DNA of 39,235 bases. It comes from Escherichia phage 64795_ec1. The notes beneath the pieces were generated by a model. It saw only the letters and a list, made by a program, of their open reading frames with translations, was not told where the DNA came from and did no database searches. The stretch is from sequence record NC_031114.1. The stretch is one strand, 5' to 3'. The translations under genes were made by a program, and so were the position numbers. Positions 2,692 through 39,235 of this stretch are shown here, one piece after another (positions within the stretch are counted from its first letter, which is position 1; each line of letters starts with the position of its first letter).

Positions 2692-5343
2692 ATGAACACG
2701 ATTAACATCGCTAAGAACGACTTCTCTGACATCGAACTGGCTGCTATCCCGTTCAACACTCTGGCTGACCATTACGGTGAGCGTTTAGCTCGCGAACAGT
2801 TGGCCCTTGAGCATGAGTCTTACGAAATGGGTGAAGCACGCTTCCGCAAGATGTTTGAGCGTCAATTGAAAGCTGGTGAGGTTGCGGATAACGCTGCCGC
2901 TAAGCCTCTCATTACTACCCTGCTCCCTAAGATGATTGCACGCATCAACGACTGGTTTGAGGAGGTGAAAGCTAAGCGTGGCAAGCGCCCGACAGCCTTC
3001 CAGTTCCTGCAAGAAATCAAGCCGGAAGCTGTAGCGTACATCACCATTAAGACCACTCTGGCTTGTCTGACTAGCGCGGATAACACAACAGTTCAGGCTG
3101 TAGCAAGCGCAATCGGTCGAGCAATTGAGGATGAGGCGCGATTCGGTCGCATCCGTGACCTTGAGGCCAAGCACTTCAAGAAAAACGTTGAGGAGCAACT
3201 AAACAAGCGCGTAGGTCACGTCTACAAGAAAGCATTCATGCAGGTTGTCGAGGCTGACATGCTCTCTAAGGGTCTAATGGGCGGCGAGGCGTGGTCTTCA
3301 TGGCACAAGGAAGACTCCATTCACGTAGGTGTTCGCTGCATTGAGATGCTCATTGAGTCAACCGGAATGGTTAGCTTACACCGCCAAAACGCTGGCGTAG
3401 TGGGGCATGACTCTGAGACTATCGAACTCACGCCGGAATACGCTGAGGCTATCGCAACCCGTGCGGGTGCACTGGCTGGCATCTCTCCGATGTTCCAACC
3501 TTGCGTGGTTCCTCCTAAGCCTTGGACTGGTATTACTGGAGGTGGCTATTGGGCCAACGGTCGCCGTCCTCTGGCACTGGTGCGCACTCACAGCAAGAAA
3601 GCACTGATGCGCTACGAAGACGTTTACATGCCTGAGGTGTACAAGGCGATTAACATTGCGCAAAACACCGCATGGAAAATCAACAAGAAAGTCCTAGCGG
3701 TCGCCAACGTAATCACCAAGTGGAAGCACTGCCCTGTAGAGGACATCCCCGCGATTGAACGTGAAGAACTCCCGATGAAACCGGAAGACATCGACACGAA
3801 TCCTGAGGCGCTCACCGCTTGGAAACGTGCTGCCGCTGCTGTATACCGCAAAGACAAGGCACGCAAGTCTCGCCGTATCAGCCTTGAGTTCATGCTTGAG
3901 CAAGCCAACAAGTTCGCTAACCATAAGGCCATCTGGTTCCCTTACAACATGGACTGGCGCGGTCGTGTTTACGCTGTGTCAATGTTCAACCCGCAAGGTA
4001 ACGACATGACCAAGGGTCTGCTGACGCTGGCTAAAGGTAAACCAATCGGTAAAGAGGGTTACTACTGGTTGAAAATCCACGGTGCAAACTGCGCTGGTGT
4101 CGATAAGGTTCCGTTCCCTGAGCGCATCAAGTTCATTGAGGACAACCACGAGAACATCATGGCTTGCGCTAAGTCTCCACTGGAGAACACTTGGTGGGCT
4201 GAGCAAGATTCTCCGTTCTGCTTCTTAGCGTTCTGCTTTGAGTACGCTGGGGTTCAGCACCACGGCCTTAGCTACAACTGCTCGCTGCCTCTGGCGTTCG
4301 ATGGGTCTTGCTCTGGTATCCAGCACTTCTCCGCGATGCTTCTCGATGAGGTAGGCGGTATGGCTGTTAACCTACTGCCTAGTCCTACCGTTCAGGATAT
4401 CTACGGGATTGTCGCTAAGAAAGTCAACGTGATTCTACAAGAAGACGTAATCAACGGGACCGATAACGAAGTAGTCACCGTGACCGATGAGAACACTGGG
4501 GAAATCTCTGAGAAAGTCAAGCTGGGCACTAAGGCGCTGGCTGGTCAATGGCTGGCTTACGGTGTTACTCGCAGCGTGACTAAGCGTTCAGTCATGACGC
4601 TGGCTTACGGGTCCAAAGAGTTCGGCTTCCGCCAACAAGTGCTGGAAGATACCATTCAGCCAGCTATTGATTCCGGTAAGGGTCTTATGTTCACTCAACC
4701 GAATCAGGCTGCTGGGTACATGGCTAAACTGATTTGGGAAGCTGTGAGCGTCACGGTGGTGGCTGCGGTTGAAGCAATGAACTGGCTTAAGTCTGCTGCT
4801 AAGCTGCTTGCTGCTGAGGTCAAAGATAAGAAGACTGGGGAGATTCTTCGCAAGCGTTGCGCTGTACATTGGGTTACTCCTGATGGCTTCCCTGTGTGGC
4901 AGGAATACAAGAAGCCTATCCAGACTCGCTTGAACCTGATTTTCCTCGGTCAGTTCCGTCTACAGCCCACCATTAACACAAACAAGGATAGTGAGATTGA
5001 CGCTCACAAACAGGAGTCCGGTATAGCTCCTAACTTTGTGCATAGCCAAGATGGTAGCCACCTGCGTAAGACTGTAGTGTGGGCACACGAGAAGTACGGA
5101 ATCGAATCGTTTGCACTGATTCACGACTCCTTCGGGACCATTCCGGCTGACGCTGCCAACCTGTTCAAAGCTGTACGCGAAACTATGGTTGACACCTATG
5201 AGTCTTGTGATGTACTGGCTGACTTCTATGAGCAGTTCGCTGACCAGTTACACGAGTCTCAATTGGATAAAATGCCAGCACTTCCGGCTAAAGGTAACTT
5301 GAACCTACAGGACATCCTTAAGTCAGACTTCGCGTTCGCGTAA
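2692..5343 (+). CDS. 1: T7-type single-subunit DNA-dependent RNA polymerase (gene 1)
   Basis: 883 aa, MNTINIAKNDFSDIELAAIPFNTLADHYGERLAREQLALEHESYEMGEARFRKMF…, ends …LKSDFAFA. Confidence 0.99.
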   Translation: MNTINIAKNDFSDIELAAIPFNTLADHYGERLAREQLALEHESYEMGEARFRKMFERQLKAGEVADNAAAKPLITTLLPKMIARINDWFEEVKAKRGKRPTAFQFLQEIKPEAVAYITIKTTLACLTSADNTTVQAVASAIGRAIEDEARFGRIRDLEAKHFKKNVEEQLNKRVGHVYKKAFMQVVEADMLSKGLMGGEAWSSWHKEDSIHVGVRCIEMLIESTGMVSLHRQNAGVVGHDSETIELTPEYAEAIATRAGALAGISPMFQPCVVPPKPWTGITGGGYWANGRRPLALVRTHSKKALMRYEDVYMPEVYKAINIAQNTAWKINKKVLAVANVITKWKHCPVEDIPAIEREELPMKPEDIDTNPEALTAWKRAAAAVYRKDKARKSRRISLEFMLEQANKFANHKAIWFPYNMDWRGRVYAVSMFNPQGNDMTKGLLTLAKGKPIGKEGYYWLKIHGANCAGVDKVPFPERIKFIEDNHENIMACAKSPLENTWWAEQDSPFCFLAFCFEYAGVQHHGLSYNCSLPLAFDGSCSGIQHFSAMLLDEVGGMAVNLLPSPTVQDIYGIVAKKVNVILQEDVINGTDNEVVTVTDENTGEISEKVKLGTKALAGQWLAYGVTRSVTKRSVMTLAYGSKEFGFRQQVLEDTIQPAIDSGKGLMFTQPNQAAGYMAKLIWEAVSVTVVAAVEAMNWLKSAAKLLAAEVKDKKTGEILRKRCAVHWVTPDGFPVWQEYKKPIQTRLNLIFLGQFRLQPTINTNKDSEIDAHKQESGIAPNFVHSQDGSHLRKTVVWAHEKYGIESFALIHDSFGTIPADAANLFKAVRETMVDTYESCDVLADFYEQFADQLHESQLDKMPALPAKGNLNLQDILKSDFAFA

Positions 5344-5449: not shown

Positions 5450-5520
5450 CCTTAAGGTTTAACTTTAAGACCATTAAGTGTTAATTAGAGATTAAATTAA
5501 AGAATACTAAGAGAGGACTT
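5450..5520 (+). other. AT-rich segment of the primary replication origin region (by position downstream of phi1.1A/B)
   Basis: AT-rich TTAACTTTAAGACCATTAAGTGTTAATTAGAGATTAAATTAAAGAATACTAAGAGAGG between phi1.1B and gene 1.1, as in T7. Confidence 0.5.
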
Positions 5521-5952: not shown

Positions 5953-6369
5953 ATGAACGACATAGAACGATTCAACGCAAAGACTGAACCATGCGGAGAA
6001 TGTATTCGTTGGACTGGTCGAATCCAGCCTAACGGGTACGGTCAGTTACGATTAAACGGTAAAACACAGTATGCACACAGAGCAGCTTACACACTGTTCA
6101 ATGGAGAAATACCAGAAGGATACGTGGTTATGCACTCCTGCGATAACAGATGGTGTGTAAACCCAAGGCACCTAACTTTAGGAACACAATCTGATAACCT
6201 CATTGACATGACCAGAAAAGGTAGGCACAGTAAGACCGTAATACCAAACGATCACATAGAGGGAATCAGGAATGATACCCGATCTTCCTACGTAATAGCT
6301 AGGGAGTGGGGAGTGAATCCATCAACTATCCAAAAGATTAAATCTGGAAAGAATAGGAGATTTGTATGA
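5953..6369 (+). CDS. free-standing HNH homing-type endonuclease
   Basis: 138 aa; motif HSCDNRWCVNPRHLTLGTQSDNLIDM (H-x-C-D-N-x-x-C-x-N-P-x-H-L…N) and a helix-turn-helix-like C-terminus (VIAREWGVNPSTIQKIKSGK). Confidence 0.85.
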   Translation: MNDIERFNAKTEPCGECIRWTGRIQPNGYGQLRLNGKTQYAHRAAYTLFNGEIPEGYVVMHSCDNRWCVNPRHLTLGTQSDNLIDMTRKGRHSKTVIPNDHIEGIRNDTRSSYVIAREWGVNPSTIQKIKSGKNRRFV

Positions 6370-10721: not shown

Positions 10722-12913
<2,192 letters not shown>

Positions 12914-13138: not shown

Positions 13139-13158
13139 TCAAACAGGAGAAACCCATT

Positions 13159-13428
13159 ATGTCAAACGTAGCTGAAACTATCCGTCTATCCGATACCGCT
13201 GACCAGTGGAACCGTCGTGTTCACATCAACGTTCGCAACGGTAAGGCGACTATGGTTTACCGCTGGAAGGACTCCAAGTCCTCTAAGAATCACACTCAGC
13301 GTATGACGTTGACAGATGAGCAAGCACTGCGTCTGGTCAATGCGCTTACCAAAGCTGCCGTGACAGCAATCCATGAAGCTGGTCGCGTCAACGAAGCTAT
13401 GGCTATCCTCGACAAGATTGATAGCTAA
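13159..13428 (+). CDS. 4.5: gene 4.5 protein
   Basis: 89 aa MSNVAETIRLSDTADQWNRRVHINVRNGKATMVYRWKDSKSSKNHTQRMTLTDEQALRLVNALTKAAVTAIHEAGRVNEAMAILDKIDS. Confidence 0.85.
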   Translation: MSNVAETIRLSDTADQWNRRVHINVRNGKATMVYRWKDSKSSKNHTQRMTLTDEQALRLVNALTKAAVTAIHEAGRVNEAMAILDKIDS

Positions 13429-17977: not shown

Positions 17978-18078
17978 CGTATATTGGCATTGGTATTAGT
18001 GCTATCGGAATGTGCCTCATTGCGTGGGGCCTTTGGGACTTAGCCAGAATAATCAAGTCGTTACAAGACACTAAGTGA
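17965..18078 (+). CDS. 6.3: gene 6.3 small hydrophobic protein
   Basis: 37 aa from GTG: (M)ETVAYIGIGISAIGMCLIAWGLWDLARIIKSLQDTK, hand-translated. Confidence 0.55.
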   Translation: METVAYIGIGISAIGMCLIAWGLWDLARIIKSLQDTK

Positions 18079-18140
18079 TAAACTCAAGGTCCCTAAATTA
18101 ATACGACTCACTATAGGGAGATAGGGGCCTTTATGATTAT
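18079..18140 (+). promoter_or_regulatory. RNase III site R6.5 (hairpin enclosing phi6.5)
   Basis: AACTCAAGGTCCC…(promoter)…GGGGCCTTTATGATTATTAC. Confidence 0.55.
18099..18121 (+). promoter_or_regulatory. T7-RNAP promoter phi6.5
   Basis: TAATACGACTCACTATAGGGAGA, +1 at 18116. Confidence 0.88.
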
Positions 18141-18175
18141 TACTTTAAGATTTAACTCTAAGAGGAATCTTTATC

Positions 18176-18430
18176 ATGTTAACACCTATTAACCAATTAC
18201 TTAAGAACCCTAACGATATTCCAGACGTGCCTCGTGCAACCGCTGAGTATCTACAGGTTCGATTCAACTATGCGTACCTCGAAGCGTCTGGTCATATAGG
18301 ACTTATGCGTGCTAATGGCTGTAGTGAAGCCCACATCTTGGGTTTCATTCAGGGCCTACAGTATGCCTCTAACGTCATTGACGAGATTGAGTTACGCAAG
18401 GAACAACTACGAGATGATGGGGAGGATTGA
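18176..18430 (+). CDS. 6.5: gene 6.5 protein
   Basis: 84 aa [84 protein letters not shown]. Confidence 0.85.
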
Positions 18431-18434
18431 CCTT

Positions 18435-18701
18435 ATGTGTTTCTCACCGAAAGTTAAAGTTCCGAAGATGGATACCAATCAGATTCGAGCCATCGAGCCA
18501 GCGCCTCTGACCCAAGAAGTGTCAAGCGTGGAGTTCGGCGGGTCTTCTGATGAGACGGATACCGAAGGCACCGAAGTGTCTGGACGCAAAGACCTCAAGG
18601 TCGAACGTGATGATTCCGTAGCGAAGTATAAAGCCAGCGATACTGGTTCCGCTCGTATGAAATCTTCAATCCGTAAGTCCGCATTTGGAGGCAAGAAGTG
18701 A
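18435..18701 (+). CDS. 6.7: gene 6.7 virion protein
   Basis: 88 aa from MCFSPKVKVPKMDTNQIRAIEPAPLTQEVSSVEFGGSSDETDTEGTEVSGRK…. Confidence 0.85.
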   Translation: MCFSPKVKVPKMDTNQIRAIEPAPLTQEVSSVEFGGSSDETDTEGTEVSGRKDLKVERDDSVAKYKASDTGSARMKSSIRKSAFGGKK

Positions 18702-19102
18702 TGTCTGAGTTCACATGTGTGGAGGCCAAGAGTCGCTTCCGTGCAATCCGGTGGACTGTGGAACACCTTGGGTTGCCTAAGGGATTCGAAGGACACTTTG
18801 TGGGCTACAGCCTCTACGTAGACGAAGTAATGGACATGTCTGGTTGCCGTGAAGAGTACGTTCTGGACTCTACCGGAAAACATGTGGCGTACTTCGCGTG
18901 GTGCGTAAGCTGTGATATTCACCACAAAGGAGACATTCTGGACGTAACGTCAGTTGTCATTAATCCTGAGGCAGACTCTAAGGGCTTACAGCGATTCCTA
19001 GCGAAACGCTTTAAGTACCTTGCTGAACTCCACGATTGCGATTGGGTGTCTCGTTGTAAGCACGAAGGCGAGACAATGCGTGTATACTTTAAGGAGGTAT
19101 AA
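18698..19102 (+). CDS. 7: gene 7 host-range / virion protein
   Basis: 134 aa MMSEFTCVEAKSRFRAIRWTVEHLGLPKGFEGHFVGYSLYVDEVMDMSGCREEYVLDSTGKHVAYFAWCVSCDIHHKGD…. Confidence 0.9.
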   Translation: MMSEFTCVEAKSRFRAIRWTVEHLGLPKGFEGHFVGYSLYVDEVMDMSGCREEYVLDSTGKHVAYFAWCVSCDIHHKGDILDVTSVVINPEADSKGLQRFLAKRFKYLAELHDCDWVSRCKHEGETMRVYFKEV

Positions 19103-19105
19103 GTT

Positions 19106-19423
19106 ATGGGTAAGAAAATCAAGAAGGCCGTGAAGAAAGTCACCAAGCCAATTACGAAAGCCGTTAAGAAAGTCGTTAAGGAAGTGGCCCGTCCGGTTAA
19201 ACAGGTTGCCAGTGGTCTGGCTGGTGGTGCAGGTGAAGCACAAGTCGTGGAAGTGCCACAGGCTGCTGCTGCAACTCCTGCTGCACAGATTGTTGACGTA
19301 CCTGAGAAAGAGGTCTCCACTGAGGACGAAGCACAGACCGAAAGCGGACGTAAGAAAGCCCGCGCTGGTGGCAAGAAGTCCTTGAGTGTGGCTCGTAGCT
19401 CCGGTGGCGGCATCAACATTTAA
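19106..19423 (+). CDS. 7.3: gene 7.3 tail/adsorption protein
   Basis: 105 aa Lys/Ala-rich MGKKIKKAVKKVTKPITKAVKKVVKEVARPVKQV…. Confidence 0.85.
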   Translation: MGKKIKKAVKKVTKPITKAVKKVVKEVARPVKQVASGLAGGAGEAQVVEVPQAAAATPAAQIVDVPEKEVSTEDEAQTESGRKKARAGGKKSLSVARSSGGGINI

Positions 19424-19437
19424 TCAGGAGGTGACAC

Positions 19438-21048
19438 ATGGCTGAGAAGCGTAAAGGTCTAGCCGAGGAAGGAGCAAAGTCGGTTTATGACCGATTGAAG
19501 AACGACCGCGCTCCTTATGAGACTCGTGCTCAAAACTGCGCTCAGTACACCATTCCGTCCCTCTTCCCTAAGGATTCCGATAACTCATCCACAGACTACA
19601 CGACTCCGTGGCAAGCTGTGGGTGCTCGCGGTCTCAATAACTTGGCCTCTAAGCTCATGCTGGCGCTCTTCCCGATGCAAACGTGGATGAAGCTGACCAT
19701 CTCTGAGTACGAGGCAAAACAGTTACTGAATGACCCCGATGGACTCGCTAAGGTCGATGAGGGTCTCTCAATGGTAGAGCGTATCATTATGAACTACATT
19801 GAGTCTAACAGTTACCGAGTGACTCTCTTTGAGGCCCTCAAGCAGTTAGTCGTAGCTGGCAACGTTATGCTATACCTACCGGAACCAGAAGGGTCAAACT
19901 ACAATCCAATGAAGCTGTACAGATTGTCTTCTTATGTGGTCCAACGAGACGCATTCGGCAACGTTCTGCAAATGGTGACGCGTGATCAGATAGCTTTCGG
20001 TGCACTCCCTGAGGACATCCGTAAGTCTGTAGAAGGTCAAGGTGGTGAGAAGAAAGCCGATGAGACCATCGACGTGTACACTCACATCTATCTGGATGAG
20101 GACTCAGTTGAATACCTCAGATACGAAGAGGTAGAGGGTATGGAAGTCCAAGGCTCCGCTGGGACTTACCCTAAAGAGGCTTGCCCATATATCCCGATTC
20201 GAATGGTTCGACTGGATGGTGAATCCTACGGTCGTTCGTACATTGAGGAATACTTGGGCGACTTACGGTCCCTTGAGAATCTCCAAGAGGCCATCGTTAA
20301 GATGTCAATGATTAGCTCTAAGGTTATCGGCTTAGTGAATCCTGCTGGTATCACCCAGCCACGCCGACTGACCAAAGCTCAGACTGGTGACTTCGTTACT
20401 GGTCGTCCAGAAGACATCTCGTTCCTCCAACTGGAGAAGCAAGCAGACTTTACTGTAGCCAAGGCTGTCAGTGACGCTATTGAGGCTCGCCTTTCGTTTG
20501 CCTTTATGTTGAACTCTGCGGTTCAACGTACAGGGGAACGTGTGACCGCCGAAGAGATTCGGTATGTGGCCTCCGAACTTGAAGATACTTTAGGTGGTGT
20601 CTACTCTATCCTTTCTCAAGAATTACAATTGCCTCTGGTACGAGTGCTCTTGAAGCAACTACAAGCCACGCAACAGATTCCTGAGTTACCTAAGGAAGCA
20701 GTAGAGCCAACCATTAGTACAGGCTTGGAAGCAATTGGTCGAGGACAAGACCTTGATAAGCTGGAGCGTTGCGTAACTGCGTGGGCTGCTCTGGCTCCTA
20801 TGCGCGATGACCCTGACATCAACCTTGCGATGATTAAGCTGCGCATTGCGAACGCTATCGGTATTGACACTTCTGGCATTCTTCTTACCGAAGAACAGAA
20901 GCAACAGAAGATGGCTCAACAGGCTATGCAAATGGGTATGGATAATGGTGCTGCTGCGCTTGGTCAAGGTATGGCTGCACAGGCTACAGCTTCACCTGAG
21001 GCTATGGCTGCTGCCGCTGATTCCGTAGGTTTACAGCCGGGCATTTAA
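19438..21048 (+). CDS. 8: portal (head-tail connector) protein (gene 8)
   Basis: 536 aa MAEKRKGLAEEGAKSVYDRLKNDRAPYETRAQNCAQYTIPSLFPKDSD…. Confidence 0.98.
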   Translation: MAEKRKGLAEEGAKSVYDRLKNDRAPYETRAQNCAQYTIPSLFPKDSDNSSTDYTTPWQAVGARGLNNLASKLMLALFPMQTWMKLTISEYEAKQLLNDPDGLAKVDEGLSMVERIIMNYIESNSYRVTLFEALKQLVVAGNVMLYLPEPEGSNYNPMKLYRLSSYVVQRDAFGNVLQMVTRDQIAFGALPEDIRKSVEGQGGEKKADETIDVYTHIYLDEDSVEYLRYEEVEGMEVQGSAGTYPKEACPYIPIRMVRLDGESYGRSYIEEYLGDLRSLENLQEAIVKMSMISSKVIGLVNPAGITQPRRLTKAQTGDFVTGRPEDISFLQLEKQADFTVAKAVSDAIEARLSFAFMLNSAVQRTGERVTAEEIRYVASELEDTLGGVYSILSQELQLPLVRVLLKQLQATQQIPELPKEAVEPTISTGLEAIGRGQDLDKLERCVTAWAALAPMRDDPDINLAMIKLRIANAIGIDTSGILLTEEQKQQKMAQQAMQMGMDNGAAALGQGMAAQATASPEAMAAAADSVGLQPGI

Positions 21049-21069
21049 TACGACTTCACTATAGGGAGA
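21046..21069 (+). promoter_or_regulatory. T7-RNAP promoter phi9, variant with one extra T (TAATACGACTTCACTATAGGGAGA)
   Basis: 24-nt match to the 23-nt consensus with an inserted T at 21055/21056; gene 8 stop TAA is its first triplet. Confidence 0.6.
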
Positions 21070-21148
21070 CCTCATCTTTGAAATGAGCGATGACCAGAGG
21101 TTGGAGTCCTCGGTCTTCCTATAGTTCAACTTTAAGGAGACAATAATA

Positions 21149-22072
21149 ATGGCTGAATCTAATGCAGACGTATATGCATCTTTTGGCGTGAACTCCGCTG
21201 TGATGTCTGGTGGTTCCGTTGAGGAACATGAGCAGAACATGCTGGCTCTTGATGTTGCTGCCCGTGATGGCGATGATGCAATCGAGTTAGCGTCCGACGA
21301 AGCGGAAACAGAACGTGACCTGTATGACAACTCTGACCCATTCGGTCAAGAAGATGATGAGGGGCGCATTCAGGTTCGTATTGGTGATGGCTCTGAGCCG
21401 ACCGATGTGGACACTGGAGAAGAAGGCTTTGAGGGCACCGAAGGTTCCGAAGAGTTTACCCCACTGGGTGAGACTCCAGAAGAACTGGTAGCTGCCTCTG
21501 AGCAACTTGGCGAGCACGAAGAAGGCTTCCAAGAGATGATTAACATTGCTGCCGAGCGTGGCATGAGTGTCGAGACCATTGAGGCTATCCAGCGTGAGTA
21601 CGAGGAGAACGAAGAGTTGTCCGCTGAGTCCTACGCTAAGCTGGCTGAAATTGGCTACACGAAGGCGTTCATTGACTCATATATCCGTGGTCAAGAAGCT
21701 CTGGTGGAGCAGTACGTAAACAGTGTCATTGAGTACGCTGGTGGTCGTGAACGCTTTGACGCACTGTATAATCACCTTGAGACGCACAACCCTGAGGCTG
21801 CACAGTCGCTTGACAATGCGTTGACCAATCGTGACTTAGCGACCGTTAAGGCTATCATCAACTTGGCTGGTGAGTCTCGCGCTAAGGCGTTCGGTCGTAA
21901 GCCAACTCGTAGTGTGACTAATCGTGCTATTCCGGCTAAACCTCAGGCTACTAAGCGTGAAGGCTTTGCGGACCGTAGCGAGATGATTAAAGCTATGAGC
22001 GACCCTCGGTATCGCACAGATGCCAACTATCGTCGTCAAGTCGAACAGAAAGTAATCGATTCGAACTTCTGA
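21149..22072 (+). CDS. 9: capsid assembly scaffolding protein (gene 9)
   Basis: 307 aa acidic protein MAESNADVYASFGVNSAVMSGGSVEEHEQNMLALDVAARDGDDAIELASDEAE…. Confidence 0.97.
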   Translation: MAESNADVYASFGVNSAVMSGGSVEEHEQNMLALDVAARDGDDAIELASDEAETERDLYDNSDPFGQEDDEGRIQVRIGDGSEPTDVDTGEEGFEGTEGSEEFTPLGETPEELVAASEQLGEHEEGFQEMINIAAERGMSVETIEAIQREYEENEELSAESYAKLAEIGYTKAFIDSYIRGQEALVEQYVNSVIEYAGGRERFDALYNHLETHNPEAAQSLDNALTNRDLATVKAIINLAGESRAKAFGRKPTRSVTNRAIPAKPQATKREGFADRSEMIKAMSDPRYRTDANYRRQVEQKVIDSNF

Positions 22073-22085
22073 TAGACTCTGAAAT

Positions 22086-22108
22086 TAATACGACTCACTA
22101 TAGGGAGA
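22086..22108 (+). promoter_or_regulatory. T7-RNAP promoter phi10
   Basis: TAATACGACTCACTATAGGGAGACCACAACGGTTTCCCTCTAGAAAT, +1 at 22103; strong SD AAGGAG before gene 10. Confidence 0.9.
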
Positions 22109-22170
22109 CCACAACGGTTTCCCTCTAGAAATCATTCTTTGTTTAACTTTCTTAAGAAGGAGACATACAT

Positions 22171-23205
22171 ATGGCTAACATGACTGGTGGACAGCAACTG
22201 GGTACTAACCAAGGTAAAGGCGTAAGCGGTGGTGCCGATAAACTGGCGTTGTTCTTGAAGGTATTTGGTGGTGAAGTTCTGACTGCATTCGCTCGTACCT
22301 CCGTGACCACTTCTCGCCACATGGTCCGTTCCATCTCCAGCGGTAAATCTGCTCAGTTCCCTGTTCTGGGTCGCACTCAGGCAGCGTATCTGGCTCCGGG
22401 TGAGAACCTCGACGATAAACGTAAAGACATCAAACACACCGAGAAGGTAATCACCATTGATGGTCTCCTGACGGCTGACGTTCTGATTTACGATATTGAG
22501 GACGCGATGAACCACTATGACGTTCGCTCTGAGTACACCTCTCAGTTGGGTGAATCTCTGGCGATGGCTGCTGATGGTGCGGTTCTGGCTGAGATTGCCG
22601 GTCTGTGTAACTTGGTAGGGACCTCTAACGAGAACATTGAGGGCCTAGGTGCTGCTACCGTAATTGAGACCACTCAGGCCAAGACTGCACTTACCGACCA
22701 AGTTGCTCTGGGTAAAGAGATTATTGCGGCTCTGACTAAAGCTCGTGCGGCTCTGACCAAGAACTATGTTCCGGCTGCTGACCGAGTGTTCTACTGCGAC
22801 CCTGACAGCTACTCTGCGATTCTGGCAGCACTGATGCCGAACGCTGCAAACTACGCTGCTCTGATTGACCCTGAGAAGGGTTCTATCCGCAACGTTATGG
22901 GCTTTGAGGTTGTAGAAGTTCCGCACCTCACCGCTGGTGGCGCTGGTACTGCCCGTGATGGCGTAACTGGTCAGAAGCACACCTTCCCTGCCACTAAGAG
23001 TGGTAATGACAAGGTAGCTAAGGACAACGTTATCGGCCTGTTCATGCACCGCTCTGCGGTAGGTACCGTTAAGCTGCGCGACTTGGCTCTGGAGCGCGCT
23101 CGCCGTGCTAACTTCCAAGCTGACCAGATTATCGCTAAGTACGCAATGGGTCACGGTGGTCTGCGCCCAGAAGCTGCTGGTGCAGTGGTTTTCAAGGGGG
23201 AGTAA
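22171..23205 (+). CDS. 10A: major capsid protein 10A
   Basis: 344 aa MANMTGGQQLGTNQGKGVSGGADKLALFLKVFGGEVLTAFARTSVTTSRH…. Confidence 0.98.
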   Translation: MANMTGGQQLGTNQGKGVSGGADKLALFLKVFGGEVLTAFARTSVTTSRHMVRSISSGKSAQFPVLGRTQAAYLAPGENLDDKRKDIKHTEKVITIDGLLTADVLIYDIEDAMNHYDVRSEYTSQLGESLAMAADGAVLAEIAGLCNLVGTSNENIEGLGAATVIETTQAKTALTDQVALGKEIIAALTKARAALTKNYVPAADRVFYCDPDSYSAILAALMPNAANYAALIDPEKGSIRNVMGFEVVEVPHLTAGGAGTARDGVTGQKHTFPATKSGNDKVAKDNVIGLFMHRSAVGTVKLRDLALERARRANFQADQIIAKYAMGHGGLRPEAAGAVVFKGE

Positions 23206-23342
23206 TGCTAAGGGTGGCCTCAACGGTCGCTGCTAGTCCCGAAGAGGCGAGTGTTACTTCAACAGAAGAAACCTTAACGCCAGCACAGAAGGCCGCACGC
23301 ACCCGCGCTGCTAACAAACCAGCTGCTGCCGCTGAGCAATAA
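22171..23342 (+). CDS. 10B: minor capsid protein 10B by -1 ribosomal frameshift near 23188-23194
   Basis: slippery G GTT TTC; -1 frame then reads QGGVMLRVASTVAASPEEASVTSTEETLTPAQKAARTRAANKPAAAAEQ to TAA 23340-23342. Confidence 0.7.
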
Positions 23343-23349
23343 CTAGCAT

Positions 23350-23390
23350 AACCCCTTGGGGCCTCTAAACGGGTCTTGAGGGGTTTTTTG
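23350..23390 (+). terminator. T7-RNAP terminator Tphi
   Basis: AACCCCTTGGGGCCTCTAAACGGGTCTTGAGGGGTTTTTTG hairpin plus U-run. Confidence 0.9.
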
Positions 23391-23407
23391 CTTAAAGGAG
23401 GAACTAT

Positions 23408-23998
23408 ATGCGCTCATACGATATGAACGTTGAGACTGCCGCTGAGTTATCCGCTGTTAACGACATTCTGGCATCTATCGGTGAACCTCCGGTATCAACT
23501 CTGGAAGGTGATGCTAACGCGGATGTAGCGAACGCTCGGCGTATTCTCAACAAGATTAACCGACAGATTCAGTCTCGTGGCTGGACGTTCAACATTGAGG
23601 AAGGCATAACGCTATTACCCGATGTTTACTCCAACCTGATTGTATACAGTGACGATTATCTGTCCCTAATGGCTACTTCCGGTCAATCCATCTACGTGAA
23701 CCGAGGTGGCTACGTCTATGACCGAACGAGTCAATCAGACCGCTTTGAGTCCGGTATTACCGTGAACATTATTCGTCTCCGAGACTACGATGAGATGCCT
23801 GAGTGCTTCCGTTACTGGATTGTCACCAAGGCTTCCCGTCAGTTCAATAACCGATTCTTTGGGGCACCGGAAGTAGAGGGTGTACTCCAAGAAGAGGAAG
23901 ATGAGGCTAGACGTCTCTGTATGGAGTACGAGGTGGACTACGGTGGGTACAATATGCTGGATGGTGACGCGTTCACTTCTGGTCTACTGACTCGCTAA
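23408..23998 (+). CDS. 11: tail tubular protein A (gene 11)
   Basis: 196 aa [66 protein letters not shown]…. Confidence 0.97.
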
Positions 23999-29774: not shown

Positions 29775-32700
29775 ATGGATAAGTACGATAAGAACGTACC
29801 AAGTGATTATGATGGTCTGTTCCAAAAGGCGGCTGATGCCAACGGGGTCTCGTATGACCTTTTACGTAAAGTCGCTTGGACGGAATCACGCTTTGTACCT
29901 ACAGCAAAATCTAAGACTGGACCATTAGGCATGATGCAGTTCACCAAGGCAACCGCTAAGGCACTTGGTCTGCGAGTTACCGATGGTCCAGATGATGACC
30001 GACTAAACCCTGAGTTGGCTATCAATGCTGCCGCCAAGCACCTTGCAGGTCTGGTAGGGAAGTTTGATGGCGATGAACTCAAAGCTGCCCTTGCATACAA
30101 CCAAGGCGAGGGACGCTTGGGTAATCCTCAACTTGAGGCGTACTCTAAGGGAGACTTCGCGTCCATCTCTGAGGAAGGACGGAACTACATGCGTAACCTT
30201 CTGGATGTTGCTAAGTCACCTATGGCTGGACAGTTAGAAACTTTTGGAGGTATCACCCCAAAGGGTAAAGGCATTCCGGCTGACGTTGGACTAGCTGGAA
30301 TAGACCATAGTCAGAAAGTAACACAGGAACTTCCTGAGTCCACAAGTTTTGACGTTAAAGGTATCGAACAGGAGGCTCCGGCGAAACCATTCGCCAAGGA
30401 CTTTTGGGAGACCCACGGAGAAACACTTGATGAGTACAACAGTCGTTCAACCTTCTTCGGATTCAAAAATGCTGCCGAAGCTGAACTCTCCAACTCAGTC
30501 GCTGGGATGGCTTTCCGTGCTGGTCGCCTCGATAATGGTTTTGATGTGTTTAAAGACACCATTACGCCGACTCGCTGGAACTCTCACATCTGGACTCCAG
30601 AAGAGTTAGAGAAGATTCGAACTGAGGTTAAGAACCCTGCGTATATCAACGTGGTAACTGGTGGTTCTCCTGAGAATCTTGACGACCTCATTAAGCTGGC
30701 TAACGAGAACTTTGAGAATGACTCACTCGCTGCCGAAGCTGGCCTCGGTGCTAAACTGAGTGCTGGCATTATTGGCGCTGGTGTGGACCCTCTTAGTTAT
30801 GTTCCCATGGTTGGTGTAACTGGTAAGGGCTTTAAGTTAATCAATAAGGCTCTTGTGGTTGGTGCAGAAAGTGCTGCGCTGAACGTTGCATCCGAAGGTC
30901 TCCGCACATCCGTAGCTGGTGGCGATGCAGATTATGCTGGTGCTGCCTTAGGTGGCTTTGTGTTTGGCGCTGGTATGTCTGCAATCAGTGATGCTGTAGC
31001 TGCTGGTCTGAAACGTAGTAAACCAGAAGCTGAGTTCGACAATGAGTTCATTGGTCCCATGATGCGGATGGAAGCCCGTGAGACAGCGCGTAACGCCAAC
31101 TCTGCGGACCTCTCTCGGATGAACACTGAGAACATGAAGTTTGAAGGTGAATACAAAGGCGTTCCATATGAGGAACTTCCGACCGAAAAGGGTGCTGTGG
31201 TTCTCCATGACGGCTCCATACTTAGTGCGAGCAACCCAATCAACCCCAAGACTCTCAAAGAGTTCTCCGAGGTTGACCCTGAGAAAGCGGCACGAGGAAT
31301 CAAACTAGCAGGGTTCACTGAGATAGGGTTAAAGACCTTAGGCTCAGACGACGCTGATATTCGACGGGTAGCTATTGACCTAGTGCGGTCTCCTACCGGA
31401 ATGCAATCAGGTTCCTCAGGGAAGTATGGTTCAACAGCTTCGGACATTTTCGAGAAACTTCGTGGCACTGACCAGCGTACTTACAACGACTTGTATAAGG
31501 CGATGTCTGACGCGATGAAAGACCCTGAGTTCTCCACTGGCGGCGCTAAGATGTCTCGCGAAGAAGCTCGTTACACTATCGAGCGTCGAGTGTCCTTGGC
31601 TATTGAGAACCCTGAGCTACAGAAGGCTTTAACTCCTAACGAGCGAATCGTAATGGACATCGTTAAGCGACATTATGACACCAAGCGTGAACTTATGGAG
31701 AACCCTGCGGTCTTTGGTAACACGAAGGCTGTGAGTATCTTTCCGGAGAGTAGACACAAGGGAACATATGTTCCACATGTGTACGACAAGTACGCTAAGG
31801 CACTCAAAATTCAACAATATGGTGCTGAGGGCTTACAGGAAGGTATCGCTCGGTCATGGATGTGTAGCTACGATTTGAGGCCTGCGGTAAAGGCCCGTAT
31901 TGACGAAGCACTTAAAGAGATGCACGGTGTAGAGGAAGTCACACATGATATGGTGTATAAGTACGCTATGGATAAAGCATACGGTATCTCTCACTCAGAC
32001 AGGTTCACTAATAGCTCCATCATTGAGGAGAACATTGAGGGTCTTGTTGGTATTGAGAATAACTCATTCCTTGAAGCACGAAACCTCTTTGACTCCGACT
32101 TAGCAATCACCATGCCAGATGGTCAGCAATTCTCTGTGAACGATTTGAGGGACTTTAGTATGTTCCGTATCATGCCAGCGTATGACCGCCGTATCAACGG
32201 TGACATAGCCATCATGGGGTCTACCGGTAAAACCACTAAGGAACTTAAGGATGAGATTTTGGCTCTCAAAGCGAAAGCTGAGGGTGACGGTAAGAAGACT
32301 GGCGAGGTTCATGCTCTAATGGATACCGTTAAGATTCTTACTGGTCGTGCTCGACGCAATCAGGACACTGTGTGGGAAACCTCACTGCGTGCCATTAATG
32401 ACCTAGGGTTCTTCGCCAAGAACGCCTATATGGGTGCTCAGAACCTTACGGAGATTGCTGGGATGATTGCCACGGGTAACGTGCGTGCTCTTGGTCACGG
32501 TATCCCAATTCTACGTGATACACTCTACAAGTCTAAACCAGTTTCCGCTAAGGAACTTAAGGAACTCCATGCGTCTCTGTTCGGGAAGGAGGTGGACCAG
32601 TTGATTAGACCTCAACGTGCTGACATAGTGCAGCGTCTAAGGGAAGCAACTGACACAGGGCCTGTTGTGGCGAACATCGTAGGAACCTTAAAGTATTCCA

Positions 32701-33581
32701 CACAGGAACTAGCTGCTCGCTCTCCATGGACTAAGCTGCTTAATGGAACCACTAACTACCTTCTTGATGCTGCGCGTCAAGGTATGCTTGGGGACGTTAT
32801 TAGTTCTACCCTAACAGGTAAGACTACCCGCTGGGAGAAAGAAGGATTCCTTCGTGGTGCCTCCGTAACTCCTGAGCAGATGGCTGGAATCAAGGCTCTC
32901 ATCAAGGAACATATGGTACGTGGTGAGGACGGGAAGTTTACCGTTAAGGATAAGCACGCGTTCTCTATGGACCCTCGTGCTATGGACTTATGGAGACTGG
33001 CTGACAAGGTAGCTGATGAGGCGATGCTGCGTCCACACAAGGTGTCCTTACAGGATTCCCATGCGTTCGGAGCATTAGGTAAGATGGTCATGCAGTTTAA
33101 GTCTTTCACTATCAAGTCCCTTAACTCTAAGTTCCTGCGAACCTTCTACGATGGGTACAAGAACAACCGAGCGATTGACGCTGCGCTGACTGGTATCATA
33201 TCTATGGGTCTCGCTGGTGGCTACTACGCTATGGCTGCACACGTCAAAGCATATGGAATGCCTAAGGAGAAACGTAAAGAGTACTTGGAGCGAGCACTGG
33301 ACCCAACCATGATTGCCCACGCTTCGTTGTCTCGTAGTTCTCAATTGGGTGCTACTTTGGCTATGGCTGACCTAGTTGGTGGCCTGTTCGGGGTTGAGTC
33401 CTCAAAGATGGCCCGCTCTACGATTCTGCCTAAAGACACCATGAGGGAGCGTGACCCTAATAAGCCTTATACCTCGTGGGAGGTAATGGGTAATATGGGT
33501 TCCAACATTCTTGAACAGATGCCATCGGCTGGATTTGTGGCTAACGTTGGGGCTTCCCTACTTAATCTGCTGGCGTGGTGA
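29775..33581 (+). CDS. 16: internal virion protein D with N-terminal lytic transglycosylase domain (gene 16); reading frame ends early at TGA 33579-33581
   Basis: 1268 aa; …GVSYDLLRKVAWTESRFVPTAKSKTGPLGMMQFTKATAKALGL… (transglycosylase motif). Confidence 0.9.
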   Translation: MDKYDKNVPSDYDGLFQKAADANGVSYDLLRKVAWTESRFVPTAKSKTGPLGMMQFTKATAKALGLRVTDGPDDDRLNPELAINAAAKHLAGLVGKFDGDELKAALAYNQGEGRLGNPQLEAYSKGDFASISEEGRNYMRNLLDVAKSPMAGQLETFGGITPKGKGIPADVGLAGIDHSQKVTQELPESTSFDVKGIEQEAPAKPFAKDFWETHGETLDEYNSRSTFFGFKNAAEAELSNSVAGMAFRAGRLDNGFDVFKDTITPTRWNSHIWTPEELEKIRTEVKNPAYINVVTGGSPENLDDLIKLANENFENDSLAAEAGLGAKLSAGIIGAGVDPLSYVPMVGVTGKGFKLINKALVVGAESAALNVASEGLRTSVAGGDADYAGAALGGFVFGAGMSAISDAVAAGLKRSKPEAEFDNEFIGPMMRMEARETARNANSADLSRMNTENMKFEGEYKGVPYEELPTEKGAVVLHDGSILSASNPINPKTLKEFSEVDPEKAARGIKLAGFTEIGLKTLGSDDADIRRVAIDLVRSPTGMQSGSSGKYGSTASDIFEKLRGTDQRTYNDLYKAMSDAMKDPEFSTGGAKMSREEARYTIERRVSLAIENPELQKALTPNERIVMDIVKRHYDTKRELMENPAVFGNTKAVSIFPESRHKGTYVPHVYDKYAKALKIQQYGAEGLQEGIARSWMCSYDLRPAVKARIDEALKEMHGVEEVTHDMVYKYAMDKAYGISHSDRFTNSSIIEENIEGLVGIENNSFLEARNLFDSDLAITMPDGQQFSVNDLRDFSMFRIMPAYDRRINGDIAIMGSTGKTTKELKDEILALKAKAEGDGKKTGEVHALMDTVKILTGRARRNQDTVWETSLRAINDLGFFAKNAYMGAQNLTEIAGMIATGNVRALGHGIPILRDTLYKSKPVSAKELKELHASLFGKEVDQLIRPQRADIVQRLREATDTGPVVANIVGTLKYSTQELAARSPWTKLLNGTTNYLLDAARQGMLGDVISSTLTGKTTRWEKEGFLRGASVTPEQMAGIKALIKEHMVRGEDGKFTVKDKHAFSMDPRAMDLWRLADKVADEAMLRPHKVSLQDSHAFGALGKMVMQFKSFTIKSLNSKFLRTFYDGYKNNRAIDAALTGIISMGLAGGYYAMAAHVKAYGMPKEKRKEYLERALDPTMIAHASLSRSSQLGATLAMADLVGGLFGVESSKMARSTILPKDTMRERDPNKPYTSWEVMGNMGSNILEQMPSAGFVANVGASLLNLLAW

Positions 33582-33730
33582 ATGCTCCCAACAAAGCCAC
33601 TGAGCAGGACTTCATGACTGGCTTGATGAACTCTACCAAGGAGTTAGTACCTAACGACCCTCTTACTCAACAGCTTGTGTTGAAGATTTATGAGGCGAAT
33701 GGTGTTAACTTGAGGGAACGTCGGAAATAA
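33578..33730 (+). other. 16: displaced 3' segment of gene 16 (last 50 codons in the other frame)
   Basis: VNAPNKATEQDFMTGLMNSTKELVPNDPLTQQLVLKIYEANGVNLRERRK, stop TAA 33728-33730 inside phi17; 1268+50 codons equals the T7 gp16 length as I recall it. Confidence 0.6.
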
Positions 33731-33802: not shown

Positions 33803-34675
33803 ATGGCTAACGTAATTAAAACCGTTTTGACTTACCAGTTAGATGGCTCCACTCGTGATTTTAATATCCCGTTTGAGTATCTAGCCCGTAAGTTCGTAGT
33901 GGTAACTCTTATTGGTGTAGACCGCAAGGTCCTTACGATTAATACAGACTACCGTTTTGCTACTCGCACTACTATCTCACTAACCAAGGCTTGGGGTCCA
34001 GCGGATGGATATACTACAATAGAGCTACGTCGAGTAACCTCCACGACCGACCGCTTGGTTGACTTTACGGATGGCTCAATCCTCCGTGCGTATGACCTTA
34101 ACGTCGCTCAGATTCAAACGATGCACGTAGCGGAAGAGGCCCGTGACTTAACTGCGGATACTATCGGTGTCAATAATGATGGTAACTTGGATGCTCGTGG
34201 TCGTCGAATTGTGAACCTAGCGAACGCTGTAGATGACCGTGACGCTGTTCCGTTTGGTCAACTTAAGGCTATGAACCAGAACTCATGGCAGGCGCGTAAT
34301 GAGGCCTTACAGTTCCGTAATGAGGCTGAGACTTTCAGAAATCAAGCGGAGGGCTTTAAGACCGAGTCTGGCACTAACGCTGCTAATACGAAGCAGTGGC
34401 GTGATGAGACCAAAGGTTTCCGAGACGAAGCTGAGCAGTTTAAGAATACTGCTGGTCAATATTCTACATCCGCTGGGAACTCTGCGACCGCAGCACACCA
34501 ATCTGAGGTAAACGCTGAGAACTCCGCAACAGCCTCCGCTAACTCTGCCCAGTCAGCAGAACAGCAAGCAGACCGCGCTAAGGTGGAAGCAGACAAGTTG
34601 GGTAACTGGAATGCACTTGCAGGGGCAATTGATAGTGTTGACGGGAACAATGTCATGTTTAAAGGCGACATTTAG
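33803..34675 (+). CDS. 17: tail fibre protein (gene 17), proximal part: T7-type tail-anchor and coiled-coil shaft
   Basis: 290 aa MANVIKTVLTYQLDGSTRDFNIPFEYLARKFVVVTLIGVDRKVLTINTDYRF…; stops at TAG 34673-34675. Confidence 0.9.
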   Translation: MANVIKTVLTYQLDGSTRDFNIPFEYLARKFVVVTLIGVDRKVLTINTDYRFATRTTISLTKAWGPADGYTTIELRRVTSTTDRLVDFTDGSILRAYDLNVAQIQTMHVAEEARDLTADTIGVNNDGNLDARGRRIVNLANAVDDRDAVPFGQLKAMNQNSWQARNEALQFRNEAETFRNQAEGFKTESGTNAANTKQWRDETKGFRDEAEQFKNTAGQYSTSAGNSATAAHQSEVNAENSATASANSAQSAEQQADRAKVEADKLGNWNALAGAIDSVDGNNVMFKGDI

Positions 34676-35675
34676 AACACCTGCAAATATCGTAGGTGGT
34701 GGCTTAATCTCCAACGGTTCTGGTCATTTTGAGAAAGGCGTGGCTGTTAAGGGTGAATTAGATGTTGTAGGGGATGTTTCGGCGCATAAGGATGTGTGGG
34801 TAGATGGTGTAGTTGTAGCCAATGGTGGGATACAGCAACATTCAAATCCTAATACCCTTAATGAGGTGTGGAGGGTGTTTATTAAGGGGGTCCCACTCCA
34901 TATTGGAAACCGACAAGGTCTTCATCTTGGTTGGAACGAGACCAGTAATGGCGAGTCGTGTTTTGTTACTAACAAAGGTGCAGGTGGTGGTGGTTTTGTT
35001 TTCCGCACGGTAAACTTTGAGAACACTGCTGAGATTGGTCGCGTTACATTCACTGGTAACGGTGGAGTACGCGCCTTCGATTTACAAGCAATTAATGGTG
35101 CTCGTATTGAGGCTGGGAATAATATAGTTGGTGCGAGCATTTTCTCAGGAATGGGCGCCTGCCAGTTCAATACCGAAGGTAACTTGCTGGGAGGTCTATG
35201 GAACAGAGTTGGAGGTGACCTATACAACTACCTGTGGAACAAGAGTCACTTTGCTAAGCCACCTGCTGGGGTTCAATTGTTTACAGGCCGTGGTGGGGAC
35301 TACCTTGAGGGCCTTGTTGATACTACAGCTGTTGGGTTCCGCTGGTTCAATTCTGACAGAAGGCTTAAAGAAAACATAAAGGTTGTACGTTCCGCTGATG
35401 ATATGCTTAAGATTATCCGCTCATACATCCCGGTTTCCTATAAGTATAAGGACTCTGAGTATGTTGATAAGCGTGGCAGAACGGTAAGCGTTACCGGTAA
35501 GAACTCTCGTGCTGGTTTCATTACTCAGGATTTGATTCGAATCTGGCCAGAGGCGGTGGACGTGCTATCCGATGGTATGCAATCCCCAGACCCTAACCAA
35601 ATCATCGGTGGACTCATGCTTCTTGTCAAGAATCTTGATGAACGCGTACAGGAGTTGGAGAAAAATAACGTTTAA
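34674..35675 (+). CDS. 17: tail fibre (gene 17), distal receptor-binding part with C-terminal S74-like intramolecular chaperone, in the other frame
   Basis: RTPANIVGGGLISNGSGHFEKGVAVKGELDVVGD… then …NSDRRLKENIKVVRSADDMLKIIRSYIPVSYKYKD…IIGGLMLLVKNLDERVQELEKNNV; no independent SD, so a continuation of the proximal ORF is assumed. Confidence 0.75.
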   Translation, partial: RTPANIVGGGLISNGSGHFEKGVAVKGELDVVGDVSAHKDVWVDGVVVANGGIQQHSNPNTLNEVWRVFIKGVPLHIGNRQGLHLGWNETSNGESCFVTNKGAGGGGFVFRTVNFENTAEIGRVTFTGNGGVRAFDLQAINGARIEAGNNIVGASIFSGMGACQFNTEGNLLGGLWNRVGGDLYNYLWNKSHFAKPPAGVQLFTGRGGDYLEGLVDTTAVGFRWFNSDRRLKENIKVVRSADDMLKIIRSYIPVSYKYKDSEYVDKRGRTVSVTGKNSRAGFITQDLIRIWPEAVDVLSDGMQSPDPNQIIGGLMLLVKNLDERVQELEKNNV

Positions 35676-38989: not shown

Positions 38990-39156
38990 AGAGTCAAGTC
39001 CTAAAGTATATCCATAAAGAGCCTCTAATGGTCTATCCTAAGGTCTATACCTAAAGATAGGCCATCCTATCAGTGTCACCTAAAGAGAGTCCTAGAGAGG
39101 GCCTAGGGAGTTCCTAGAGGGTCCTTTAAAATATACCATAAAAATCTGAGTGACTA
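38990..39156 (+). repeat. right-end short-repeat region (CCTAAAG-like heptamers) preceding the terminal repeat; concatemer-processing/packaging signals by position
   Basis: recurring CCTAAAG / CCATAAAG / CCTAGAG units spaced along the segment. Confidence 0.45.
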
Positions 39157-39235
39157 TCTCACAGTGTACGGACCCAAAGTTCCCCCCATACGGGGTACCT
39201 AAAGCCCACCTAAAGTCAACCGAAGGTCCTTAGGG
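39157..39235 (+). repeat. beginning of the direct terminal repeat (partial, truncated by the window edge)
   Basis: TCTCACAGTGTACGGACCCAAAGTTCCCCCCATACGGGGTACCTAAAGCCCACCTAAAGTCAACC closely matches the T7 genome-end sequence as recalled. Confidence 0.7.

Follow-up and report, generated by a model that had tools for sequence, protein, structure and literature searches.

The sequence record of Escherichia phage 64795_ec1 (NC_031114.1) has one T inserted within its phi9 promoter, and this base is probably an artefact, in which case the true phi9 would be canonical and would serve as an ordinary late (class III) promoter. The artefact reading is drawn from sequence comparison rather than from reads, and it is suggested by an insertion that is unique and of run-length type, by other like events in the same record, and by the likely sequencing platform. 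The window analysed here, meaning the whole stretch of DNA at its full length of 39,235 nucleotides, has ~92% nucleotide identity to T7, and its first 25 kb is also ~92% identical to Cedecea phage Yanou, Bas104, and ESh1.

Read directly from the window, the phi9 site at positions 21046-21069 of the + strand is TAATACGACTTCACTATAGGGAGA. These 24 nt can be written as TAATACGACT-T-CACTATAGGGAGA and correspond to the 23-mer consensus plus one T, with all 23 consensus bases present and in order. At 21055-21056, the record has TT in place of the one T of the consensus (position -8), and the insertion point lies between -8 and -7. The first-pass annotation had placed an extra T at 21055/21056 and a would-be +1 G at 21064, and the window sequence confirms both; the G at 21064 is +1 in the downstream register, and the A at 21063 takes this place in the upstream register. 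By synteny, the site is homologous to T7 phi9, as it overlaps the gene 8 stop codon, lies 5' of gene 9, and is followed by a conserved leader. Gene 8 (19438-21048, + strand) encodes the portal, or head-tail connector, of 536 aa, and its TAA stop (21046-21048) forms the first three bases of phi9, a layout that is the same in T7 and phage 13a. Since the inserted T is downstream of this stop codon, it is non-coding. Gene 9 (21149-22072, + strand), which is served by phi9, is intact and encodes a scaffolding protein of 307 aa. The sequences flanking phi9 align with those of T7, 13a, and 19 other loci. In T7 itself, phi9 (+1 at T7 position 21865) occupies the same place, with the same overlap with the gene 8 TAA, the same distance of ~100 nt 5' of gene 9, and the same leader, but the extra T is found in the 64795_ec1 record alone, and no indel is present in the other members examined. 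Folding of the phi9 leader RNA gave nothing notable, with z about -1.2 for the window and T7 alike.

A weight matrix derived from 17 T7 promoters was used to score both strands of the window. It detected 16 ungapped promoters on the + strand (26.5-39.9 bits), one for each remaining T7 promoter position, and zero promoter sites on the minus strand. The same matrix gives phi9 -5.4 bits when it is read in the upstream register and -0.3 bits in the downstream register; it is thus below zero in either register, whereas the other five class III sites score 39.9 bits each. As recorded, phi9 lacks the ungapped 23-bp consensus TAATACGACTCACTATAGGGAGA (-17 to +6) by which class III promoters are defined. 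Its resemblance to that consensus is nevertheless not a matter of chance, as a search of the window for the 23-mer with up to 3 mismatches returned 10 matches, compared to 0 expected. Explicit enumeration of the one-base-indel variants of the promoter core identified exactly one site in the window, which is phi9. The other promoters had been described earlier as all keeping the same spacing behind an initial TAA; the ungapped register indeed holds for 16/16 of them, but the TAA start is not universal (of the class II promoters, phi4c and phi4.3 begin with CAA, and phi4.7 with CTA). As a separate observation, the phiOL homologue (67-89) starts with GGGAGA where T7 phiOL starts with AGGAGA, and it is nearer to the class III consensus than T7 phiOL is (37.1 vs 34.3 bits).

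Comparative analyses point to a strictly conserved site among the relatives of 64795_ec1. All 21 distinct phi9 loci (21/21) read TTAATACGACTCACTATAGGGAGA, and phi9 is identical over 24 nt in these 21 distinct relatives while the surrounding DNA is 6-9% different. The exact phi9 24-mer of the window was not found in IMG/VR. A looser pattern, TTTAAT-N(14-20)-leader, recovered 11 IMG/VR contigs and 6 metagenome contigs, and 17/17 have the canonical 17-nt spacing. None of the 162 GenBank phage records that extend across an 85-nt query on phi9 has the insertion; the best of these 162 has 97.6% identity, with 84 subject bases over the 85-nt query. Three contigs encode a gp9 identical to that of the window, and these likewise have a canonical phi9, their DNA being 91.6-93.9% identical. 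Additionally, explicit enumeration of the 17 ungapped promoters in each of six complete relatives gave 0/102 copies with an indel. The invariance of phi9 in 21 relatives and the absence of indels from these 102 copies together indicate strong purifying selection on phi9. Exact-protein look-ups with gp8, the truncated gp16, and both gp17 fragments of the window gave no match, and there is thus no independent assembly of the same phage with which the record could be compared. A 16-mer, ACGACTTCACTATAGG, was also sought in bacterial and archaeal sequence (596 Gb) and set aside: its 55 matches are in unrelated organisms and are at or below the number expected by chance, such that a 16-mer is too short to inform, and the sole match in Enterobacteriaceae, TTGACGACTTCACTATAGGCG, does not represent a phage promoter.

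The inserted T is one of several single-base differences of this kind. Among the indels that the record does not share with six complete relatives, five are single-base events, at 5492, 13153, 13427, 21055, and 33567. The change at 13427 (AA to AAA) is also present, within the whole phage collection, in phage CQ615 and others; it is therefore natural, and some single-base indels in the genome are real. Upstream of gene 1.1, the record has TT at 5491-5492 (+ strand) where the six compared relatives have TTT, and no record of the phage collection has the same TTT to TT change at 5492. It also has CCC at 13151-13153 (+ strand), 3' of the ribosome-binding site of gene 4.5 and 5' of its ATG, where relatives have CC; the extra C at 13153 is the sole difference from several relatives over 71 nt, and it is common to 0/148 records.

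Two further single-base events interrupt genes. When T7 proteins were compared to the window by tblastn, gp16 was split over two frames at 33566, and alignment with HZ2R8 and T7 located a missing base at 33566-33567 (+ strand), where the record reads AAT-CTG and its relatives read AATACTG or AATGCTG. The gene 16 ORF (29775-33581) consequently ends at 33581 and encodes 1268 aa rather than the full 1318; the final 54 residues of gp16 are encoded in another frame at 33566-33727 (within ORF 33575-33730). This deletion was not found in any of the top-scoring relatives that were aligned. In gene 17, which encodes the tail fibre, the record has TTT at 34671-34673 (+ strand) where Bas102 has TT. Relative to Bas102 and ESh1, this one extra T makes a TAG stop at 34673-34675, so that the gene is read as two ORFs, 33803-34675 and 34611-35675. 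The split was left unchanged in the deposited annotation, and in GenBank and RefSeq the 341-aa C-terminal piece is named 'tail fiber protein' (ANM45766.1 / YP_009291519.1). A programmed or natural split of genes 16 and 17 was considered and rejected, because each event is a single base that interrupts contiguous homology to the full-length genes present in every relative.

Genes 16 and 17 of T7 are essential virion genes (Dunn and Studier 1983; Molineux). For a strictly lytic phage isolated from plaques, frameshifts in both at the consensus level are therefore not biological, and that in gene 16 is almost certainly a sequencing error. The T in phi9 appears to belong to the same error class as the other indels of the record.

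Unlike the indels, the substitutions in the record are unremarkable. There are 337 private substitutions, of which 288 are in coding sequence; of the latter, 218/288 are at third codon positions, and 229 are synonymous while 59 are non-synonymous. The private substitutions thus look like real evolution. Evolutionary substitutions alongside anomalous indels imply that the quality problem is confined to indels, as flow-based chemistry would give, and the record is accurate for substitutions and unreliable for single-base indels. In the vicinity of phi9 (20900-21300), no cluster of private substitutions was found, the sole one being at 20923, and there is thus no sign of either a low-quality patch or relaxed constraint. 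Two differences in the phi9 leader are not private when compared to the six full relatives. The ends of the record are draft-like: it starts near T7 position 319 and covers ~80 nt of the right terminal repeat before it stops, and no overlap was found between its two ends (1-20 and 39150-39235). Although the genome is labelled complete, ~240 nt and one of the direct terminal repeats are absent.

Flow-based chemistry is prone to run-length miscalls. Ion Torrent PGM was the platform for sister phages that the same laboratory described from this series of samples (118970_sal1 KU927500, 64795_sal3, and others); SPAdes was used for their assembly and an in-house tool for finishing (PMC5114364), and two further announcements from the same group also name Ion Torrent. 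No announcement giving the sequencing platform of 64795_ec1 was found, and Ion Torrent is its presumed platform. The indels of the record are like the miscalls of flow-based platforms (Ion Torrent PGM, 454) in that they are single-base events, 4/5 alter the length of a short run, and they are unique to the record. They also share with such miscalls the occurrence of indels in conserved sequence and of frameshifts in essential genes next to sound substitutions. In contrast to typical flow-based miscalls, the runs are short (1-3 nt) and the gene 16 deletion is outside a homopolymer, and the platform of this comparison is itself the presumed one.

These observations suggest how the recorded sequence could have arisen. 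A single T would have been read as TT, a run-length miscall on an indel-prone platform, which was probably Ion Torrent PGM. The true phi9 would then be TAATACGACTCACTATAGGGAGA and would work as it does in T7: the phage RNA polymerase would bind -17 to -5 of the canonical promoter, with its AT-rich recognition loop reading -17 to -13 and its specificity loop reading -11 to -7, and would open the TATA element. Transcription would start at the first G and would proceed through genes 9 and 10 as far as Tphi. The first-pass annotation had given the T a biological reading. The evidence instead favours a sequencing error, given a unique insertion, the frameshifts in genes 16 and 17, two intergenic indels that are also unique, and sister genomes from Ion Torrent PGM.

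The case for an artefact is not without counter-evidence. The most typical Ion Torrent errors are other than an over-call from 1 to 2 bases at high coverage, and no homopolymer is involved in the gene 16 event. Moreover, engineered loss of phi9 costs T7 little in the laboratory, and the viability of the phage therefore fits a real mutation too. Rough arithmetic also leaves the two routes to the insertion at a similar prior size. On one side, 2 errors per ~36 kb of coding sequence correspond to a chance of ~0.001 of one error within the phi9 23-mer, if errors are uniform. On the other side, natural single-base indels in non-coding sequence occur at ~0.001 per nt, or ~0.02 per 23 nt if they are neutral; as phi9 is invariant in 21 relatives, at most a few percent of mutations persist, which gives <=0.001 for a natural insertion.

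A less probable explanation, and one to be regarded as doubtful, is that the insertion is real and that phi9 is inactive or nearly so. Transcripts of genes 9 and 10 would then come from phi6.5 by read-through, with phi10 as an additional promoter for gene 10. The upstream source, phi6.5 (18099-18121, + strand), is a consensus promoter from which read-through could reach genes 6.5-10, and phi10 (22086-22108, + strand) is an intact consensus promoter. No + strand terminator was found between phi6.5 and gene 9; the sole terminator-like site on the + strand within 18000-23500 is the Tphi-like hairpin after gene 10 (23350-23385). Earlier it had been proposed that gene 9 would depend on phi6.5, and this is feasible, given the uninterrupted path and the viability of T7 without phi9, but it presupposes an insertion that is probably an artefact.

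A very weak phi9 would be expected for the recorded site from what is known of the polymerase. The specificity loop of T7 RNA polymerase contacts -11 to -7 in the major groove, and the binding element spans -17 to -5 (PMC5937735; PMC11617373); the structural literature on this enzyme places the intercalation of the Val loop between -5 and -4. The insertion therefore falls within the stretch contacted by the specificity loop, and the recorded phi9 is below 0 bits in both registers, compared to 26-40 bits for working promoters. The RNA polymerase of 64795_ec1 is 98% identical to that of T7 and retains R746, N748, R756, and Q758, and the T7 register is thus expected to be necessary. With a T7-like polymerase and 16 promoters in the T7 register, a shifted phi9 should be very weak, the size of the defect being predicted from the contact map. 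The prediction in the first-pass annotation that the promoter would be weakened or abolished thus stands for the sequence as written, in which the upstream contacts and the TATA/+1 region are not retained together in any register; it does not extend to the phage if, as is probable, the base is an artefact.

In T7, loss of phi9 is survivable. Paff, Jack, Smith, Bull, and Wilke (2018, mSystems) exchanged the promoter for other sequence, and the resulting phage was viable (PMC6068830). RNA from genes 9-12 was reduced, and the fitness loss was small provided that the gene 8 stop was kept; in a wild-type background, the loss was not significant (P = 0.089), and the severe defect in T7 came with destruction of that stop, which is kept here (PMC6068830). 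If the insertion were real, 64795_ec1 would therefore resemble the engineered knockout in having lost phi9 with the gene 8 stop kept and genes 9-10 fed from upstream, in a viable phage. The two differ in that the knockout exchanged 18-23 bp for arbitrary sequence and was verified, whereas the change in 64795_ec1 is one unverified base in a wild isolate. Natural one-base intergenic indels do exist in this genome, as at 13427. However, phi9 is unchanged in the 21 distinct relatives and the 102 promoter copies are indel-free, the weight matrix found no compensating promoter 5' of gene 9, the record has other single-base indels that are impossible in a viable lytic phage, and the probable platform is prone to indels. 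For these reasons, the sequencing artefact is preferred over a natural loss of the promoter.

It is very improbable that the insertion is real and that phi9 remains usefully active, whether by use of the upstream register with a start at A 21063 or with help from the private RNA polymerase changes Q239H or M750I. Read in the upstream register, the site matches the consensus from -17 to -8, and its start AGGGAG resembles that of the A-initiating phi2.5, AGGGAA; the polymerase does differ from that of T7 by Q239H in the intercalating hairpin and M750I in the specificity loop. However, -7 to -1 would then read TCACTAT instead of CACTATA, which are seven consecutive mismatches that include a specificity-loop contact (-7) and the whole TATA melting element, in agreement with the score of -5.4 bits. 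The 16 other promoters in the T7 register show that the spacing requirement of the polymerase is unchanged, and no report of a tolerated insertion between -8 and -7 was found in the literature consulted. The gene 1 product keeps the T7-type specificity determinants named above, and its AT-rich recognition loop is unchanged. Overall, the RNA polymerase (gene 1, 2692-5343) differs from T7 RNA polymerase at 16/883 residues, and the base-contacting residues are unchanged; Q239H adjoins V237 in the intercalating hairpin, and M750I is inside the specificity loop.

Two further loci in the window differ from their surroundings or from T7. Within gene 4 (primase/helicase), the bin 11501-12000 has 33 private substitutions per 500 nt, ~3x any other bin; this patch appears divergent and may be a mosaic produced by recombination. 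A 138-aa ORF at 5953-6369 separates the phi1.3 promoter from the ligase gene. It has 35-40% identity to the T7 gp2.8 and gp7.7 homing endonucleases, and an HNH endonuclease is annotated at the matching position in Yanou and Bas104. Neither a T7-like gene 2.8 (after gene 2.5) nor a gene 7.7 (before gene 8) is present in the window.

Phage 64795_ec1 represents the species Teseptimavirus tv64795ec1 as its exemplar and is included in RefSeq, and its record appears to need correction. At least three apparent single-base errors are consequential, as they result in a broken phi9, a truncated gp16, and a split gp17, and the last of these already circulates in protein databases under the name "tail fiber protein" (341 aa). 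Such artefacts would pass into promoter catalogues, studies of covariation between RNA polymerases and promoters, and comparisons of tail fibres and host range. The biological weight of the insertion is low, since a real one would repeat the result obtained with the engineered T7 phi9 knockout. It would be a mildly deleterious natural knockout and the field counterpart of that laboratory result. In that case, a late promoter that is otherwise invariant would be dispensable outside the laboratory, and the scaffold protein would be supplied by read-through from phi6.5 in a wild Teseptimavirus.
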